From the NCBI RefSeq assembly GCF_016903815.1, contig NZ_CP069973.1: a stretch of DNA of 64,000 bases. The stretch is one strand, 5' to 3'. Shown one piece after another: positions 10,077 to 63,668 of the stretch. The position numbers and the translations under genes were made by a program. The stretch comes from Escherichia coli. Lineage in GTDB: Bacteria; Pseudomonadota; Gammaproteobacteria; Enterobacterales; Enterobacteriaceae. Under the pieces are notes generated by a model. That model ran no database searches. It saw only the letters and a list, made by a program, of their open reading frames with translations, and had not been told where the DNA came from. Each line of letters opens with the position of its first letter. The stretch's first letter is position 1.

Positions 10077-10568
10077 CTAAAAATTGTCTTTTTTAAAGTC
10101 ATGCGGATTGAAAACTCGCTCTATTTTATTTTCTTGTGTTAATTGATACTCAGTAAAATCGTTAATACCAATATGAGTGTTACGATAAGGGTATTCATTA
10201 ATAACCATTAAGTAATTTTTCACGATGCAATTATCATTGCTCTTAATTGTCGGGAAACAGTAGAGATCTTCATACGGCCCTTCGATATATTTTTTATAGT
10301 CAGTGAAGCCATTACCGATATCAATGACATACCAGGTATGCCAACTACCTTCTGGTAGGGGATGTTGATTTTTAATTTCATTCTGATGCTTCAGATACCA
10401 ATTTATTTTATCGCTGTCAGTCCATGGCAGATGATCAACGACCAGAAAGACTGAATTGCCAGCATCAGAGTATGTATACAAAATCTGTACAGGACGCAAT
10501 GTCCATAAATTATAGATGCAGCATAGAAGAAATAAACATAATATAATTTTCTGGAGTTTACTTTTCAT
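10077..10568 (-). CDS. hypothetical exported or membrane-anchored protein; candidate immunity partner of the upstream gene
   Basis: 163 aa; N-terminal hydrophobic segment (KIILCLFLLCCIYNLW); start overlaps the upstream stop (ATGA); very AT-rich; no family recognised. Confidence 0.55.
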   Translation of the reverse strand: MKSKLQKIILCLFLLCCIYNLWTLRPVQILYTYSDAGNSVFLVVDHLPWTDSDKINWYLKHQNEIKNQHPLPEGSWHTWYVIDIGNGFTDYKKYIEGPYEDLYCFPTIKSNDNCIVKNYLMVINEYPYRNTHIGINDFTEYQLTQENKIERVFNPHDFKKDNF

Positions 10569-11413
10569 AGATAATTTTCGATTCTTTCGATAGTGTTAAA
10601 ATTGGTGAAAAAAGGTTTGAAAGCAAAGTCTTTATGCCGTTGTAAAAAGAACCATATGCGAAAAAATCTATATTTGCTGTAAGTCTTGTTTTTTATATCA
10701 GTTACATCCAAACCAAAGTGGTCTTGTGCTATGAAATGAATGGTAGCGCTCCAGCCCATAGGATATTTTTGAAAATTTAAAAGAGAGATTTTTTGAGCTG
10801 AGATATCATGAATGCTGATTCCCAGGCCATTAAAATTATCTTTAAAATCATTGAATTTATTTAGTCTTGATGAAAGTAATTCGATCTTAATCTTTTGTAG
10901 GAGAAGAGGCCGGTATCCTATCGTAGGTGTTGAAGAAATATCATTTTCGATACATTCTTTGATTACACGTATTGGGCTATTATAATCATATTTGTTTATT
11001 CGTTCATGAAAAGATAAGTTCAATTCCTGGCTATGGAAACTGTTGCCATTTCCATATCTAAAATGATCAATCAGATCCTGGATGAGTGTTTTGTATTGTC
11101 CAAAAAAGGAAAACATTTTTGCCAGATCTTTCATTTCTGCAAATAAAATATCAATACATTCACTTTGTGATATTTTTGTTCCGGAAGTTGGAACACTAAA
11201 AGCACCATAAGTAGAATTCGGCCCAGGAAAATGGTATTTAATGAGGCGGTAAGGATCAACTTTTGCAGAGATGTCGCTTAAGCCGAGTGAGAGAAAATCT
11301 TGTTCTTCCATATCCCCATATTGCATATCATCAGCAGAAAAATCATCGAATAAAGTAATAGTTTCGAAAAGTGTACAGGGCATATTAATTGATGAGCCTA
11401 ATATGTTGTTCAT
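10565..11413 (-). CDS. hypothetical 282-aa soluble protein; candidate orphan effector/toxin
   Basis: Long ORF in a strongly AT-rich block between corA and rarD; no signal peptide; translationally coupled to the downstream 163-aa gene; family not recognised. Confidence 0.55.
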   Translation of the reverse strand: MNNILGSSINMPCTLFETITLFDDFSADDMQYGDMEEQDFLSLGLSDISAKVDPYRLIKYHFPGPNSTYGAFSVPTSGTKISQSECIDILFAEMKDLAKMFSFFGQYKTLIQDLIDHFRYGNGNSFHSQELNLSFHERINKYDYNSPIRVIKECIENDISSTPTIGYRPLLLQKIKIELLSSRLNKFNDFKDNFNGLGISIHDISAQKISLLNFQKYPMGWSATIHFIAQDHFGLDVTDIKNKTYSKYRFFRIWFFLQRHKDFAFKPFFTNFNTIERIENYL

Positions 11414-23799: not shown

Positions 23800-24060
23800 T
23801 TATTTATTCTCACGTTGCACGAGATTGTATCCCTTTTCACTAACGTGGTAGTGAGGCATAGACTTATTCCCGCTATCCTCAATAATAACCAAACCTTCGT
23901 TAGCTAATTTGTTAACAATGTTAACAACATTCCCGAATCCTGGAATTTGCCTTATGGATAGTGTGCGATCGAGATTCATCCAGTTCCAGTTTATATCTTT
24001 CTCAGTCATAACGTTCAGCACGTTAAGTTCATTTTTAGTGATCACGATATTCTGTACCAA
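23800..24060 (-). CDS. small winged-helix-like protein, paralogue 2; candidate immunity protein
   Basis: 86 aa; roughly 55-60% identical by eye to the neighbouring 85-aa ORF (shared IPGFGNV..NIV.KL...GLV core); AT-rich island. Confidence 0.55.
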   Translation of the reverse strand: MVQNIVITKNELNVLNVMTEKDINWNWMNLDRTLSIRQIPGFGNVVNIVNKLANEGLVIIEDSGNKSMPHYHVSEKGYNLVQRENK

Positions 24061-24119
24061 AATTGATGAGTATCTTATTGAAAGATCACAATGTAAATCA
24101 TGCTCCTGTAATGGCTGGA

Positions 24120-24377
24120 TCAGAAGAGGTTGTCTTGTTGTTCTTTGATAAGATTCAATCCATATTGAGAAACTCTGTAGCGTGGTCTAGAGTTGCCCTC
24201 ACCATTTACGATATCAACCAACCCATGATTAACCAGCTTTGTTACGATATTCGCTACGTTGCCAAATCCTGGAATATTTCGTATAGCTAAAGTACGATCC
24301 AGCACCATCCAGCTCCAGTCAATATCTTTCTCAGCCATAACTTTCAGCACGTTAAATTCAACTATCGTAATCGTCAT
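24120..24377 (-). CDS. small winged-helix-like protein, paralogue 1; candidate cognate immunity protein
   Basis: 85 aa; start overlaps the stop of the Hcp-extension gene (ATGA), implying translational coupling. Confidence 0.55.
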   Translation of the reverse strand: MTITIVEFNVLKVMAEKDIDWSWMVLDRTLAIRNIPGFGNVANIVTKLVNHGLVDIVNGEGNSRPRYRVSQYGLNLIKEQQDNLF

Positions 24378-25507
24378 TTTGTTGCATCCGGATGAAATAA
24401 GTCAGTATCTTTAATTTTAAAGTCTTCTAGAGTTGCAGTATGTACATTATTCCATAATTCATATCCATCTAAACCTTTCGGTTCACCTGTTTCCCATCCT
24501 AAATTACAATAACGCTGATACTCGCGACATTCATGAGTATAGTAGTTCAGATCGTATTTTTCAGGAAGCAATTCTTTATTTGCTATTTTCTTTAGCCTTG
24601 AAATCATTACATCATTAGCTGGATCATGATCAAATCTGGAGATATGCTTTTCAACAATAGCGATACCTTCCCTGTTGATTGTTACGCCATCTATCGTCAG
24701 GTTTTCAATTGGACCACCGGCAAGGTCGGGATTAAATGGTCTTCCTGATACTGCTCCTCTGGCTCCGAAATGCTCAAGTGATTCCAAATCAGGGAATCTC
24801 ATTCTTCCCAGAACAACTCCAGCAACTATTGAAGCACCAGCGATGAGTAACCCTTTGTTATCCATAACTTGATCGTAACCAGCAGGTGCATCTCCTCCCA
24901 ACTTGTTTGCTGTTTCCCTGAATCCTTCGATATTCCCATTGTATATGCCGCCAGCAGCAAGCAGTCTGCCAACCGCTTTACTATTGAGTGTTTTGAGGCC
25001 ATTATCATCTTTAGTTTTTGGCCGTGGTATAAACAGACGGTTGTAGTTATCGGGAAATGCCAAATAACTAAATTCAGTATTAGCAATCAGATGCCTGGAG
25101 AGTATATATTCATAACTGACAGTGATGGTTTCTGTATCCAGATTGTTCTCAGTAAACAGGTGATTGATTGCTGATAAGAGCGCGCCGCGAAGTTGAATGT
25201 TGTAATATTTCTCCCATCGACCAAATCTATTGATCCGATAGAAGTCAAACTCCATGAACAACTGCTCGTTATTGTTAATAGCGTTAATAAGTAACGGGGA
25301 GCTTTTGTCAATCAATTTACAGAAACTAAGGCCATGCAATTGTGACCCTTTGCCTGTATTCGTAATACTATTAGAGAGCGAGAACGCGAAGATTTCATCT
25401 TCATGGCCAATCTGCCAGCGATTACCTATTGATGCGCTCGTTCCACAACGAGAGGAAATACATCCTTGTTGTTCTCCGGTTATGTTCAGGTAAATAATAT
25501 CACTCAT
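24374..25507 (-). CDS. Hcp (T6SS tube protein) fused to a C-terminal extension: candidate 'extended Hcp' toxin
   Basis: 377 aa; N-terminal ~150 aa aligns by eye to Hcp (IYLNITGEQQG ~ IKGESKD; FCKLIDKSSPLL ~ FTKYIDKSTPNL; FYRIN ~ WYKIN); ~220-aa extension with a Gly/Ala-rich hydrophobic stretch and an unassigned C-terminal domain. Confidence 0.75.
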   Translation of the reverse strand: MSDIIYLNITGEQQGCISSRCGTSASIGNRWQIGHEDEIFAFSLSNSITNTGKGSQLHGLSFCKLIDKSSPLLINAINNNEQLFMEFDFYRINRFGRWEKYYNIQLRGALLSAINHLFTENNLDTETITVSYEYILSRHLIANTEFSYLAFPDNYNRLFIPRPKTKDDNGLKTLNSKAVGRLLAAGGIYNGNIEGFRETANKLGGDAPAGYDQVMDNKGLLIAGASIVAGVVLGRMRFPDLESLEHFGARGAVSGRPFNPDLAGGPIENLTIDGVTINREGIAIVEKHISRFDHDPANDVMISRLKKIANKELLPEKYDLNYYTHECREYQRYCNLGWETGEPKGLDGYELWNNVHTATLEDFKIKDTDLFHPDATK

Positions 25508-30165: not shown

Positions 30166-32408
<2,243 letters not shown>

Positions 32409-37770: not shown

Positions 37771-37781
37771 GATATAAAAAA

Positions 37782-37800
37782 CCCGCCCCTGACAGGCGGG
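37782..37800. terminator. hairpin between convergent fre and fadA
   Basis: cccgcccctgacaggcggg stem-loop; A-run on the plus side means a T-run on the minus strand, so it more likely terminates the minus-strand fadBA transcript. Confidence 0.45.
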
Positions 37801-37842
37801 AAGAACGGCAACTAAAACTTTATACAGTGGCATTTAGATCTA

Positions 37843-37948
37843 TGTCGCATCCGGCATACGCTGCCTGATGCGACGCTGGCGCGTCTTATCAGGCCTACAT
37901 TGGTGCTGGATCGGTAGACCGGATAAGGCGTCACGCCGCATCCGGCAA
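37843..37948. repeat. BIME / cluster of REP palindromic units
   Basis: Three REP-like units (tgtcgcatccggcatacg; gcctgatgcgacgctggcgcgtcttatcaggcctac; cggataaggcgtcacgccgcatccggcaag). Confidence 0.65.
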
Positions 37949-37952
37949 GTGG

Positions 37953-39125
<1,173 letters not shown>

Positions 39126-41315
39126 TTAAGCCGTTTTCAGGTCGCCAACCGGACGGGCTGGCTCAACCGGGGGATAGTACGGTTCGTTATGACGCGCTTT
39201 ATTACGCAGACCTTCCGGCACTTCATACAGCGGGCCGAGGTGCTGATATTGCTGTGCCATATCGAGGTATTTTGCGCTACCGAGGGTGTCCAGCCAGCGG
39301 AACGCACCGCCGTGGAACGGAGGGAAGCCCAGGCCGTAGACCAGCGCCATATCCGCTTCTGCCGGAGTGGCGATAATGCCTTCTTCCAGACAGCGGACCA
39401 CTTCGTTGACCATCGGGATCATCATGCGGGCGATAATCTCTTCTTCGCTGAAATCGCGCTTCGGCTGGCTCACTTCTGCCAGCAGGTCGTCAACGACGGC
39501 GTCTTCTTCTTTCTTCGGCTTACCTTTGCTGTCTTCTTTATAACGCCAGAAACCGAGGCCGTTCTTCTGACCAAAGCGGTTGGCATCAAACAGCGCGTCG
39601 ATGGTATCGCGATAATCTTTCTGCATCCGCTGCGGGAAGCCTGCTGCCATGACAGCCTGGGCATGATGCGCGGTGTCAATGCCCACAACGTCCAGCAGAT
39701 ATGCCGGACCCATAGGCCAGCCAAACTGTTTTTCCATCACTTTGTCGATCTTGCGGAAATCCGCGCCGTCGCGCAGCAGCTGGCTGAAACCCGCGAAGTA
39801 GGGGAACAGCACGCGGTTAACGAAGAATCCGGGGCAGTCGTTAACCACAATCGGCGTTTTGCCCATCTTGCTCGCCCAGGCGACGACTTTCGCGATGGTT
39901 TCGTCGGAGCTTTTCTCGCCGCGAATAATTTCCACCAACGGCATCCGGTGCACCGGGTTAAAGAAGTGCATCCCGCAGAAGTTTTCCGGACGTTCCAGCG
40001 CGTTGGCCAGTTCGCTGATAGGAATGGTTGAAGTGTTAGACGCCAGCACGGTATCCGGGCGTACTTTCTGCTCGGTTTCTGCCAGTACGGCTTTTTTCAC
40101 TTTCGGGTTTTCGACAACCGCTTCTACCACAACATCCACGCGGTCAAAACCAGAGTAATCGAGCGTTGGGTGGATTGTGGAGATCACGCCAGCCAGTTTC
40201 AGACCATCGATCTTGCCGCGCTCAAGCTGCTTGTTCAGCAGTTTCGCGGCTTCGGTCATGCCGAGGGTTAACGACTTGTCGTTGATATCTTTCATGACAA
40301 CCGGTACGCCTTTCCACGCAGACTGGTAAGCGATGCCGCCACCCATAATGCCTGCGCCCAGCACAGCGGCCTGTTTCGGGGTTTCAACGTCTTTGGTGAG
40401 TTTCTTCGCTTTGCCTTTTACATATTGATCGTTAAGGAAAATGCCGACCAGTGCGCGGGCTTCGTTGGTGTGCGCCAGCGGGACAAAGCTTTTGTTTTCC
40501 AGATTTAATGCTTCTTCACGACCAAAACGGGCCGCCGCTTCAATGGTTTTTACTGCGGTGATGGGGGCCGGATAATGTTTCCCCGCCGTTTGTGCGACCA
40601 TCCCTTTAGCGATGGTGAAGCTCATGGTGGCTTCAATCTTGCTCAGTTTTAGCGGTTCCAGCTTCGGCTGACGTTTCGCTTTCCAGTCGAGGTCGCCGTT
40701 AATGGCCTGGCGTAAAATCGCCATCGCCCCTTCAACCAGTTTTTCTGCTTTGACTACACCATCCACCAGACCGATTTTCAGCGCCTGATCCGCGCCGACA
40801 TCTTTACCGGCGGCAATGATTTCCAGCGCACTGTCAGCGCCCAGCATACGTGGCATACGTACAGAACCGCCAAAGCCCGGCATGATGCCCAGTTTGGTTT
40901 CCGGCAGACCGATGCGCAGATCCGGCGTCGCCAGACGATAATCGGTCGCCAGCACGCATTCGCAGCCACCGCCCAGCGCATAGCCGTTGACGGCAGCAAT
41001 GGTCGGCACCGGGAGATCTTCCAGGCGATTAAACACGCTATTGGCAAAGTGCAGCCACTGACTTAACTGTTCTTCAGGAACGAGGAACAGGGACAAAAAT
41101 TCGGTGATATCAGCACCGACGATAAAGGCTGATTTGTTCGAACGTAGCAGCAGCCCTTTTAGATCTGATTGCTGTTCCAGCACGCCGATGGCCTCGCCGA
41201 GGCTGGCGACGGTCGCAGTGTCGAGTTTATTAACTGAACCTGGGGCATCAAATACCAGTTCGGCAATGCCATCTTCCAGCCAGTCAAGGTACAGGGTGTC
41301 GCCTTTGTAAAGCAT
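39126..41315 (-). CDS. fadB: fatty-acid oxidation complex alpha subunit FadB
   Basis: 729 aa from ATG at 41315 ([22 protein letters not shown]...); track ORF over-extends upstream. Confidence 0.95.
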
Positions 41316-41340
41316 GTCAGTCTCCTGAATCCGCAAGGTG

Positions 41341-41357
41341 ATCTGGTCGTACCAGAT
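41341..41357. promoter_or_regulatory. FadR operator of the fadBA promoter
   Basis: ATCTGGTCGTACCAGAT, a 17-bp near-perfect palindrome matching the FadR consensus (TGGT-N-ACCAG core), ~25 bp upstream of the fadB start. Confidence 0.75.
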
Positions 41358-41504
41358 GCATCGAAGTGTGTATTTTGTGTTAAAAATATGCAAATAAAAG
41401 ATTAAAGAAATGCCGATCTGATCACGCTCGGCAGAAATCACGCTCTGGATGAACGATGTGCTAAGATGCGGAGACTTAAGGTCAAAAAAACAGAAGGGTA
41501 AAAA

Positions 41505-42836
41505 ATGGAATCACTGGCCTCACTCTATAAAAATCATATAGCTACCTTACAAGAACGGACTCGCGATGCGCTGGCGCGCTTCAAGCTGGATGCGTTACTT
41601 ATTCACTCCGGCGAACTGTTCAACGTTTTTCTCGACGATCATCCCTATCCGTTTAAAGTGAATCCGCAATTCAAAGCGTGGGTGCCGGTAACTCAGGTGC
41701 CAAACTGCTGGCTGTTGGTGGATGGCGTGAACAAGCCGAAACTGTGGTTTTATCTGCCGGTTGATTACTGGCACAACGTCGAACCGCTGCCGACCTCCTT
41801 CTGGACTGAAGATGTAGAAGTGATCGCGCTGCCGAAAGCCGATGGCATTGGTAGCCTGCTGCCTGCTGCGCGCGGGAATATCGGTTATATCGGTCCGGTG
41901 CCGGAGCGTGCGCTGCAACTGGGTATTGAGGCCAGCAATATCAACCCGAAAGGGGTGATCGACTACCTGCATTACTACCGCTCCTTCAAAACCGAGTACG
42001 AACTGGCCTGTATGCGTGAAGCGCAGAAAATGGCGGTCAACGGTCATCGCGCGGCAGAAGAAGCGTTCCGTTCTGGCATGAGCGAGTTCGATATCAATAT
42101 TGCCTATCTGACCGCGACCGGTCATCGTGATACCGACGTACCTTACAGCAACATTGTGGCGCTTAACGAACACGCTGCGGTGTTGCATTACACCAAACTG
42201 GACCACCAGGCACCGGAAGAGATGCGCAGCTTCCTGCTGGATGCCGGGGCCGAATATAACGGCTATGCGGCTGACCTGACCCGTACCTGGTCGGCAAAAA
42301 GCGATAACGACTACGCACAGCTGGTGAAAGACGTAAATGATGAACAACTGGCGCTGATCGCCACCATGAAAGCAGGCGTCAGCTATGTGGATTACCACAT
42401 CCAGTTCCATCAGCGCATCGCCAAACTGCTGCGTAAACATCAAATCATCACCGATATGAGTGAAGAAGCGATGGTCGAAAACGATCTCACCGGACCGTTT
42501 ATGCCGCACGGTATCGGCCATCCGCTGGGCCTGCAGGTGCATGACGTAGCCGGTTTTATGCAGGATGATAGCGGTACGCACCTCGCGGCACCGGCAAAAT
42601 ATCCGTACCTGCGCTGCACCCGTATTCTCCAGCCGGGCATGGTGTTAACCATCGAGCCGGGTATCTACTTCATCGAATCGCTACTGGCACCGTGGCGTGA
42701 AGGGCAGTTCAGTAAACACTTTAACTGGCAGAAAATTGAAGCACTGAAACCGTTCGGCGGCATTCGTATCGAAGACAACGTGGTGATCCACGAAAACAAC
42801 GTGGAAAACATGACCCGGGATCTGAAACTGGCGTGA
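41505..42836 (+). CDS. pepQ: Xaa-Pro dipeptidase (prolidase)
   Basis: 443 aa [21 protein letters not shown]... Confidence 0.95.
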
Positions 42837-47679: not shown

Positions 47680-47863
47680 TCTCTGTAGTGATTAAATAAA
47701 AAATACTTCAGAGTGTACCTGCAAAGGTTCACTGCGAAGTTTTGCTCTTTAAAAATCTGGATCAAGCTGAAAATTGAAACACTGAACAATGAAAGTTGTT
47801 CGTGAGTCTCTCAAATTTTCGCAACACGATGATGAATCGAAAGAAACATCTTCGGGTTGTGAG

Positions 47864-51018: not shown

Positions 51019-51585
51019 GCATTGGTGCAAAACAAATGCCGGATGCGACGCTGGCTGAACTGCACCCCAAATGTTGGACATAATCTGACATCTGAAGGTG
51101 CAGTTTATGAAACATTCATTTGAAGTAAAAATTGCCGCTGTAAATCATTACCTGGCCGGTCATGCAGGCATCATTTCTACGGCAAAACTCTTTCAACTTT
51201 CTCACACCAGCCTCTCACACTGGATTAATCTTTTTCTTCTTCACGGTCCTCAGGCACTGGATTGCAGACACAAGCGTAGCTATTCTCCTGAAGATAAACT
51301 TTGCGTGGTTCTTTATGCTCTCGGGCATTCTGAGTCTCTACCCCGGGTAGCTGCCCGGTTTAACATTCCCAGCCACAACACGGTTAAAAACTGGATAAAA
51401 GGCTACCGCAAATCTGGTAATGAGGCCTTTATCAGGCGCAGGAAGGAGAAATGCATGACCCGTTCTGATGATACCCATGAAAACGAGGCAAACATGACGC
51501 CGGAAGAGATGAAGAATGAGCTGCGTTATCTTCGCGCAGAAAATGCATATCTGAAAGCCATGCAGGAGCATCTCCTGGAAAAAAA

Positions 51586-52488
<903 letters not shown>

Positions 52489-55702: not shown

Positions 55703-56410
55703 GCACAGAAAACCCCCAGCTAGGCTGGGGGTTCCGGAAAGCTTTCAGCTTTAAGCCAGTTATTAAAACCCCTTTTGATTTGTTAAAACACCTTGCGGTC
55801 TGGCAACTGCAAGTGTCAAACAAGAAATCAAAAGGGGGTCCCAATGGGGAACGAAAAGAGCTTAGCGCACACCCGATGGAACTGTAAATATCACATAGTT
55901 TTTGCGCCAAAATACCGAAGACAGGTGTTCTACAGAGAGAAGCGTAGAGCAATAGGCAGTATTTTGAGAAAGCTGTGTGAGTGGAAAAGTGTACGGATTC
56001 TGGAAGCTGAATGCTGTGCAGATCATATCCATATGCTTGTGGAGATCCCGCCCAAAATGAGCGTATCCGGCTTTATGGGATATCTGAAAGGGAAAAGCAG
56101 TCTGATGCTTTACGAGCAGTTTGGTGATTTGAAATTCAAATACAGGAACAGGGAGTTCTGGTGCAGAGGGTACTACGTCGATACGGTGGGTAAGAACACG
56201 GCGAAGATACAGGATTACATAAAGCACCAGCTTGAAGAGGATAAAATGGGAGAGCAGTTATCGATTCCCTATCCGGGCAGCCCGTTTACGGGCCGTAAGT
56301 AACGAAGTTGGATGCAAATGTCAGATCGTGTGCGCCTGTTAGGGCGCGGCTGGTAAGAGAGCCTTATAGGCGCATTTGAAAAACCTCCGGCTATGCCGGA
56401 GGATATTTAT
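55703..56410 (+). mobile_element. IS200-family (IS200/IS605) insertion sequence; boundaries approximate
   Basis: Y1 transposase gene preceded by a hairpin (aaacccccagctaggctgggggtt, 55709-55732) and a long-range pairing ccccttttgatt / aatcaaaagggggtc that buries the RBS, and followed by a hairpin (cctccggctatgccggagg, 56384-56402); all typical of IS200. Confidence 0.7.
55844..56302 (+). CDS. tnpA: IS200-family Y1 (HUH) transposase TnpA
   Basis: 152 aa from ATG at 55844; HUH motif (DHIHMLVEIPP) and catalytic Tyr region (YIKHQ). Confidence 0.9.
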   Translation: MGNEKSLAHTRWNCKYHIVFAPKYRRQVFYREKRRAIGSILRKLCEWKSVRILEAECCADHIHMLVEIPPKMSVSGFMGYLKGKSSLMLYEQFGDLKFKYRNREFWCRGYYVDTVGKNTAKIQDYIKHQLEEDKMGEQLSIPYPGSPFTGRK

Positions 56411-62073: not shown

Positions 62074-62220
62074 GATTCGCCTGAACATGCCCTTTTTTCG
62101 TAAGTAAGCAACATAAGCTGTCACGTTTTGTGATGGCTATTAGAAATTCCTATGCAACAACTGAAAAAAAATTACAAAAAGTGCTTTCTGAACTGAACAA
62201 AAAAGAGTAAAGTTAGTCGC

Positions 62221-62329
62221 GTAGGGTACAGAGGTAAGATGTTCTATCTTTCAGACCTTTTACTTCACGTAATCGGATTTGGCTGAATATTTTAGCCGCC
62301 CCAGTCAGTAATGACTGGGGCGTTTTTTA
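62221..62329 (+). ncRNA. spf: Spot 42 small regulatory RNA
   Basis: GTAGGGTACAGAGGTAAGATGTTCTATCTTTCAGACC...CCCCAGTCAGTAATGACTGGGGCGTTTTTT matches remembered Spot 42 (~109 nt) with its intrinsic terminator; canonical polA-engB location. Confidence 0.9.
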
Positions 62330-63087: not shown

Positions 63088-63358
63088 AGCGGTCGTCTCC
63101 GTCAGTCAAAGCTTTGCGGCGATTATACCTGAACCATAATAAAAGGCGGATTTTTCGGCGTGAGCGTTGTAAGTAAAAGCCATACGCTTTGTGAGACATT
63201 GCCGATAGTCTTTATGCGAAATAGCAGAGAAAATTCTGCGATGCATGTCAAATAAGCTATATAAATCAGTTAATTGCTTTTATATAAAACTCTGAAAATG
63301 TGCAAATACTGATGGCGGTTGATTGTTTGTTTAAAGCAAAGGCGTAAAGTAGCACCCA

Positions 63359-63603
63359 TAGAGCGAGGACGCTAACAGGAACAATGACTCAGGATGAGGG
63401 TCAGGAGCGCCAGGAGGCGAAGACAGAGGATTGTCAGGAAGACAAACGTCCGGAGACGTAATTAAACGGAAATGGAATCAACACGGATTGTTCCGGCTAA
63501 TGGAAAAACAGGGTGTGTTGGCGGCCTGCAAGGATTGTAAGACCCGTTAAGGGTTATGAGTCAGGAAAAAAGGCGACAGAGTAATCTGTCGCCTTTTTTC
63601 TTT
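63359..63603 (+). ncRNA. csrC: CsrC small RNA (CsrA-sequestering)
   Basis: Starts ATAGAGCGAGGACGCTAACAGGAACAATGACTCAGGATGAGGGTCAGGAGCG; many GGA motifs; ends at terminator aaaaaaggcgacagagtaatctgtcgccttttttc; ~245 nt; canonical engB-yihI location. Confidence 0.85.
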
Positions 63604-63668
63604 GCTTGCTTTCTGTTAGATTCCGCCGCAAATCTATACTGAATAAAACGGCTAAAAGACGAACCATT

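Follow-up and report, generated by a model that had tools for sequence, protein, structure and literature searches.

The analyzed window, a stretch of 64,000 nucleotides, represents the part of the Escherichia coli chromosome which reaches from cyaA to yihI. It is collinear with the genome of E. coli strain 7/2 (NZ_CP023820.1, 4325499-4389498), with three mismatches over 64 kb which are all located in the rRNA operon, and the gene calls for fadB and the other genes were adopted from the RefSeq annotation of this collinear strain. The site described here lies within the 189-bp spacer between fadB and pepQ, at -42 to -26 relative to the fadB ATG. The two genes diverge from this spacer and the pepQ ATG is found at a distance of 148 nt from the site. 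On the fadA side of fadB the genes ubiD and fre are encoded on the plus strand. A stretch of 601 bp around the site was matched in 5425 of 5426 complete E. coli genomes. The fadR gene itself lies outside the window and is present in 5422 of the 5426 genomes. All features of the locus and their coordinates are listed in Table 1. The spacer between fre and fadA (window 37771-37952) comprises 182 bp here versus 380 bp in K-12 MG1655 (L004, 2230-2609), which suggests either a repeat element inserted in K-12 or a deletion in the present sequence.

Table 1. Features of the fadBA locus, with their positions in the window and the basis of each assignment.
Feature	Position	Strand	Basis or remark
fadB CDS, first gene of the regulated operon	39126..41315	-	RefSeq annotation, collinear genome
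fadA CDS, second gene of the operon	37953..39116	-	RefSeq annotation, collinear genome
pepQ	41505-42836	+	followed by yigZ, trkH, hemG and rrnA
FadR operator of the fadBA promoter (OB), almost certain assignment	41341..41357	-	identity with published operator and EMSA probe, top matrix match, sole consensus match, conservation
Promoter-proximal half-site ATCTGGTA, operator positions 1-8	41350..41357	-	8/8 positions invariant (n=45); carries the CTGGT core
Central dyad base, "n" of the consensus	41349..41349	-	C in E. coli; other genera have T or A
Promoter-distal half-site GACCAGAT, operator positions 10-17	41341..41348	-	GACCAG invariant; final AT variable
Inferred fadBA transcription start +1, first operator base	41357..41357	-	published numbering applied to the window sequence
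Putative weak -10 hexamer CACACT	41365..41370	-	spaced 17 nt from the -35 and 7 nt from +1; four positions invariant, two at least 90% conserved
Putative -35 hexamer TTGCAT	41388..41393	-	TTGCA invariant in 45 sequences; spacing fits the published numbering
Putative FIS site TTGCATATTTTTAACACAA	41375..41393	-	sequence named in PMC3460868, unchanged in the window
fadB ribosome-binding site AGGAG	41322..41326	-	6 nt before the ATG; block ATTCAGGAGACTGAC invariant in 45 sequences

Several further features were observed in the window. Between metE and ysgA a gene annotated as tssD (window 23800-25507, minus strand) encodes a protein of 377 amino acids, of which only residues 6-135 form an Hcp domain (PF05638) while the remaining approximately 240 residues are without a Pfam match. 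Two small ORFs after tssD (24120-24377 and 23800-24045) do not match any Pfam family either. The locus resembles an orphan Hcp which is extended at its C-terminus, possibly by a toxin domain, and accompanied by candidate immunity genes; K-12 is not known to carry this insert between metE and ysgA. Between corA and rarD, an overlapping DUF3289 (YPO3983-family) gene and a gene for a DUF943 membrane protein are encoded on the minus strand (10077-11413). Mobile elements are represented by an IS3-family IS1397 transposase gene (51107-52455), which immediately follows the 5S rRNA gene in the rrn operon, and by an IS200C tnpA between dsbA and yihF (55711-56302), with the Rfam RNA STnc490 (55711-55834) just upstream of tnpA. 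Rfam matches at the gathering level were moreover obtained for the Erse sRNA inside the 3' part of ubiJ (30520-30771), for StyR-44 just upstream of the 23S rRNA gene (47747-47855), for Spot 42 (62211-62329) and for CsrC (63358-63611). These four RNAs are known from E. coli and lie where they are expected.

Read directly from the window, positions 41341-41357 of the plus strand are ATCTGGTCGTACCAGAT, which corresponds to ATCTGGTACGACCAGAT on the minus strand, i.e., in the sense of fadB. A repeat finder returned two arms of 7 nt, ATCTGGT and ACCAGAT, which are 100% complementary and separated by a gap of 3 nt. The earlier note had described a near-perfect 17-bp palindrome at this position, and the wording is accurate, since the exact sequence is present and 7 of the 8 possible symmetric pairs of the 17-mer are formed. 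The 17-mer occurs exactly once in the 64-kb window, in which about 0.1 chance matches with up to three mismatches are expected. Symmetry as such is common: the window holds 31 17-mers in which at least seven of the eight pairs are symmetric, versus 28 +/- 4.5 in random sequence with matched dinucleotide frequencies. Palindromy was therefore rejected as evidence for an operator because such 17-mers appear at chance rate in the window, and the case rests on the specific sequence and its location.

Letter for letter, the window site equals the 17-bp "fadO" operator ATCTGGTACGACCAGAT, which is bound by FadR and used for biosensors (PMC7372789), and also the core of the fadBA EMSA probe ACTTCGACTC-ATCTGGTACGACCAGAT-CACCTTGCGG, for which a shift was obtained with wild-type E. 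coli FadR and none with the W60G mutant (PMC4259882). In a fadR deletion, fadBA-lacZ was de-repressed more than 3-fold (PMC4259882). The FadR consensus is given as aaCTGGTCnGACC(T/A)Gtt, and the FadR site of fadBA overlaps the transcription start, in keeping with its role in repression (PMC9329746). The same review cites DiRusso 1992, the primary footprint paper (PMC9329746). The proposed match to the FadR recognition sequence is thus borne out by identity with the published operator, and 11 of the 12 specified core positions agree with the consensus. Likewise, the proposed repressing position fits the locus, where the site lies upstream of fadB-fadA and covers +1 to +17 by the published numbering. 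Hence, the site is almost certainly the FadR operator (OB) of the E. coli fadBA operon. This operator is already known, and its detection is a correct but ordinary finding. It is the textbook high-affinity FadR operator and was reportedly described in 1992.

Motif searches within the window were carried out with the consensus core and with two weight matrices. For the core CTGGTCnGACCWG the site was the only match with at most one mismatch in 64 kb, where 0.22 such matches are expected. The first matrix was built from seven sites (two each from fadL and fadD, and those of fabA, fabB and iclR), with fadB left out. With this matrix the fadB site reached 9.6 bits and was only the 9th-best in the window; each of 100 random 64-kb sequences contained a higher score. 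The weak score is due to overfitting at the flanking positions 2 and 16 together with degenerate right halves in the training set, and not to a poor site. As a refutation the result of the 7-site matrix was rejected, because the site stands out with an 11-site matrix as well as with the consensus core. The 11-site matrix was symmetrised, again excluded fadB, and contained training sites of fadE, fadI, fadH and fadM which had been located by consensus in the K-12 promoters. Here the fadB site was the top 17-mer of the window with 15.3 bits versus 11.7 bits for the next best, a value covered by the leave-one-out scores of the other known sites, which run from -1.6 to 19.1. At a per-position P of 3e-6, 0.39 matches are expected in 64 kb and 0.001 in the 189-bp spacer. 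Since 12-15% of random 64-kb sequences reach 15.3 bits somewhere, the matrix alone is suggestive, and it becomes convincing only in combination with position and conservation. The weight-matrix check named in the earlier note was passed with the 11-site matrix, for which the site ranks at the top of the window; with the 7-site matrix it does not rise above background.

The second check, a comparison with the fadL, fadD and fadE operators, was carried out on K-12 sequence and extended to the promoters of fadE, fadIJ, fadL, fadD, fadH and fadM, each of which contains a consensus-like site near the gene start. With one core mismatch, the fadB site is equal best with fadL site 1 and the site of fadI. 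A second candidate FadR site in the spacer (41411-41427, TGCCGATCTGATCACGC) was rejected with four core mismatches and a score below 3 bits; only its GTGATC part is conserved. The searches illustrate that a weight matrix built from few sites may overlook even the best-known one, and that position and phylogenetic footprinting identify it unambiguously.

For the phylogenetic footprint, one genome per species was scanned with a degenerate DNA pattern for the FadB N-terminus, so that the loci were chosen independently of the operator. A total of 46 Enterobacteriaceae loci was retrieved, including Escherichia, Salmonella, Citrobacter, Klebsiella, Enterobacter, Siccibacter and Yokenella. In all 46 species ATCTGGTA-N-GACCAG is located at -41 to -43 from the fadB ATG, and within the operator only position 9 and positions 16-17 vary. 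Of 47 sequences (the 46 species loci and the window), 16 have C as the central base, 22 have T and 9 have A; most Citrobacter fadBA operators carry a central T, in contrast to the C of E. coli. The last two operator bases are TA instead of AT in nine of the 46 species, and these are the same nine that have the central A. In a column alignment of 45 sequences (44 species loci and the window), 14 of the 17 operator columns were invariant versus 4 of the 17 columns just upstream. The other conserved islands of this alignment (n=45) are the putative -35 and -10 hexamers and the ribosome-binding site. Judged from these alignments, constrained half-sites around a free central base are the very pattern predicted for the site of a FadR dimer, and they indicate that both half-sites, though not the central base, are under strong purifying selection.

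Within the species the operator is nearly uniform. Of 5426 E. coli genomes searched, 5420 hold the 45 nt of operator and leader, 5414 of them with at least 99% identity, and among the matches listed every one is 100% identical. A contig deposited as "Chryseobacterium sp. 18061" (CACSKA010000013.1, L048) carries an enterobacterial fadB start with the operator variant ATCTGGTAAGACCAGTA. The variant is shared with "Citrobacter sp. 18056" (L056) from the same submission series, and the Chryseobacterium contig is probably a mislabelled or contaminated assembly.

The architecture of the promoter could be anchored by a published landmark. The sequence TTGCATATTTTTAACACAA occupies -36 to -18 of the fadBA promoter and was proposed as a putative FIS site (PMC3460868). 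Because it is found at 41393-41375 of the minus strand, +1 is placed at 41357 and the operator extends from +1 to +17. A scan of 41250-41560 with the strict sigma-70 consensus did not return a promoter, so the -10 and -35 hexamers in Table 1 were assigned solely from the published numbering and from conservation. The empty scan is consistent with a weak, activator-dependent fadBA promoter. ArcA, as well as CRP and FIS indirectly, are described to modulate the fadBA promoter (PMC3460868). A terminator-like match at 41455-41441 of the minus strand was discarded, as it lies upstream of the promoter and at chance level.

Two further conserved elements were observed in the spacer. The block GTGATC at 41420-41425 (-110 to -105 from the fadB ATG) is invariant in the 45 Enterobacteriaceae sequences and could be half of a CRP-like element or an ArcA-related element. 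Further upstream, a conserved island CGCATCTTAGCAC is located at approximately 41457-41469 (n=45). Its plus-strand reading TGCTAAGAT, at about 41461-41469, is probably the extended -10 of pepQ.

With +1 as the first base of the operator, an operator-derived stem-loop of 7 bp would form the 5' end of every fadBA transcript. This opens another reading of the conserved bases, in which the selected feature is an RNA hairpin (AUCUGGUACGACCAGAU, 7-bp stem) that stabilises the transcript at the 5' end of the fadBA mRNA and FadR binding is secondary. 5'-terminal stem-loops can shield E. coli mRNAs from decay, and if +1 is indeed 41357, the transcribed operator forms a stem of 7 bp closed by a 3-nt loop, at -6.8 kcal/mol. 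However, the whole leader does not fold better than its shuffles (z = -1.04, 32 of 200 shuffles being as good), and Rfam contains no family that matches at the leader. In the nine of 46 species with TA for AT the outer two pairs are broken with no compensation at positions 1-2, so that a stem of only 5 bp remains; since the arms otherwise never vary, there is no covariation that supports a hairpin. In addition, the invariant bases are exactly those of the FadR consensus core. We therefore consider it very improbable that a hairpin is what selection maintains. A weaker version, in which the operator-derived stem-loop adds a post-transcriptional layer by shielding the 5' end against RppH/RNase E or by affecting fadB translation, appears unlikely as well, though less so. 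If true, it could help to explain why both half-sites are perfect in the fadB operator, unlike in other FadR sites.

That the site is a chance palindrome without function, which lies upstream of fadB by accident, is hardly conceivable. It would agree with the ordinary frequency of such 17-mers in the window and with the 7-site matrix, by which the site is not distinguished. Against it stand the identity with an experimentally bound operator and the roughly 0.001 matrix matches of this strength expected in the spacer, and the pattern of half-sites that are invariant in 46 species while the neighboring bases vary refutes it in practice. Practically no weight can be given either to the operator of another regulator, e.g., another GntR-family protein, or to a control of the divergent pepQ instead of fadBA: short inverted repeats are common to GntR-family operators and the site does lie in the divergent spacer, 148 nt from the pepQ ATG, but the published binder of the exact sequence is FadR, and the site is located on the fadBA start, about 100 nt upstream of the candidate pepQ -10, a non-repressing position which makes control of pepQ unlikely.

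For the preferred assignment as the FadR operator of fadBA, the mechanism is already established. Structures of FadR have been solved (entries 1HW1/1HW2 and 1E2X/1H9G/1H9T), of which we take 1HW2 and 1H9T to be the DNA-bound complexes. A dimer of FadR, a GntR-family winged-helix repressor, binds the CTGGT/ACCAG half-sites of ATCTGGTA-C-GACCAGAT via its N-terminal winged-helix domains. The residues of FadR which contact DNA are R35, T44-T47, R49 and H65 (PMC4259882). Because the operator covers +1 to +17, just downstream of a weak -10, bound FadR keeps RNA polymerase from initiating at fadBA. Once long-chain fatty acids are imported and activated, the resulting long-chain acyl-CoA (C14 or longer) binds to the C-terminal domain of FadR; the acyl-CoA-bound protein leaves the DNA, and fadBA, which encodes the multienzyme complex of beta-oxidation, is transcribed. 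FadR binding, release by acyl-CoA and the regulation of fadBA are reviewed in PMC9329746.

The site is of little discovery value, as the fadBA operator is widely reused as "fadO" in acyl-CoA biosensors. It serves rather as a positive control for the earlier note, by showing that the sequence alone is enough for a first-stage reader to recognise a real regulatory site.

Comparison with the fadBA operator (OB) of E. coli K-12 revealed the same 17 bp, the same flank to the fadB ATG and the same distance to this ATG as in the window, and the gene context ubiD-fre-fadA-fadB / pepQ is shared as well. Differences are restricted to the upstream side: just upstream of the operator K-12 reads CGACTC and the window CGATGC, given as three substitutions, and one further base differs near the -35, whereas none differs inside the operator. 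The FadR sites of fadL, fadD, fadE, fadIJ, fadH, fadM, fabA, fabB and iclR are likewise 17 bp long and built on aaCTGGTCnGACC(T/A)Gtt. Those of the fad genes are located near the gene or transcript start, as at fadB, while the sites of fabA and fabB are upstream of the promoter and activating (PMC4259882). Among the FadR sites compared, the fadB site is the only one with CTGGT in both halves. It also carries T/A at positions 2/16, where the other FadR sites mostly have A/T. At operator position 8 (window 41350, fadB sense) it has an A, in contrast to the C found in 20 of 22 symmetrised half-sites of the other FadR operators; since this A is invariant in all 46 species, the deviation from the consensus is itself conserved.
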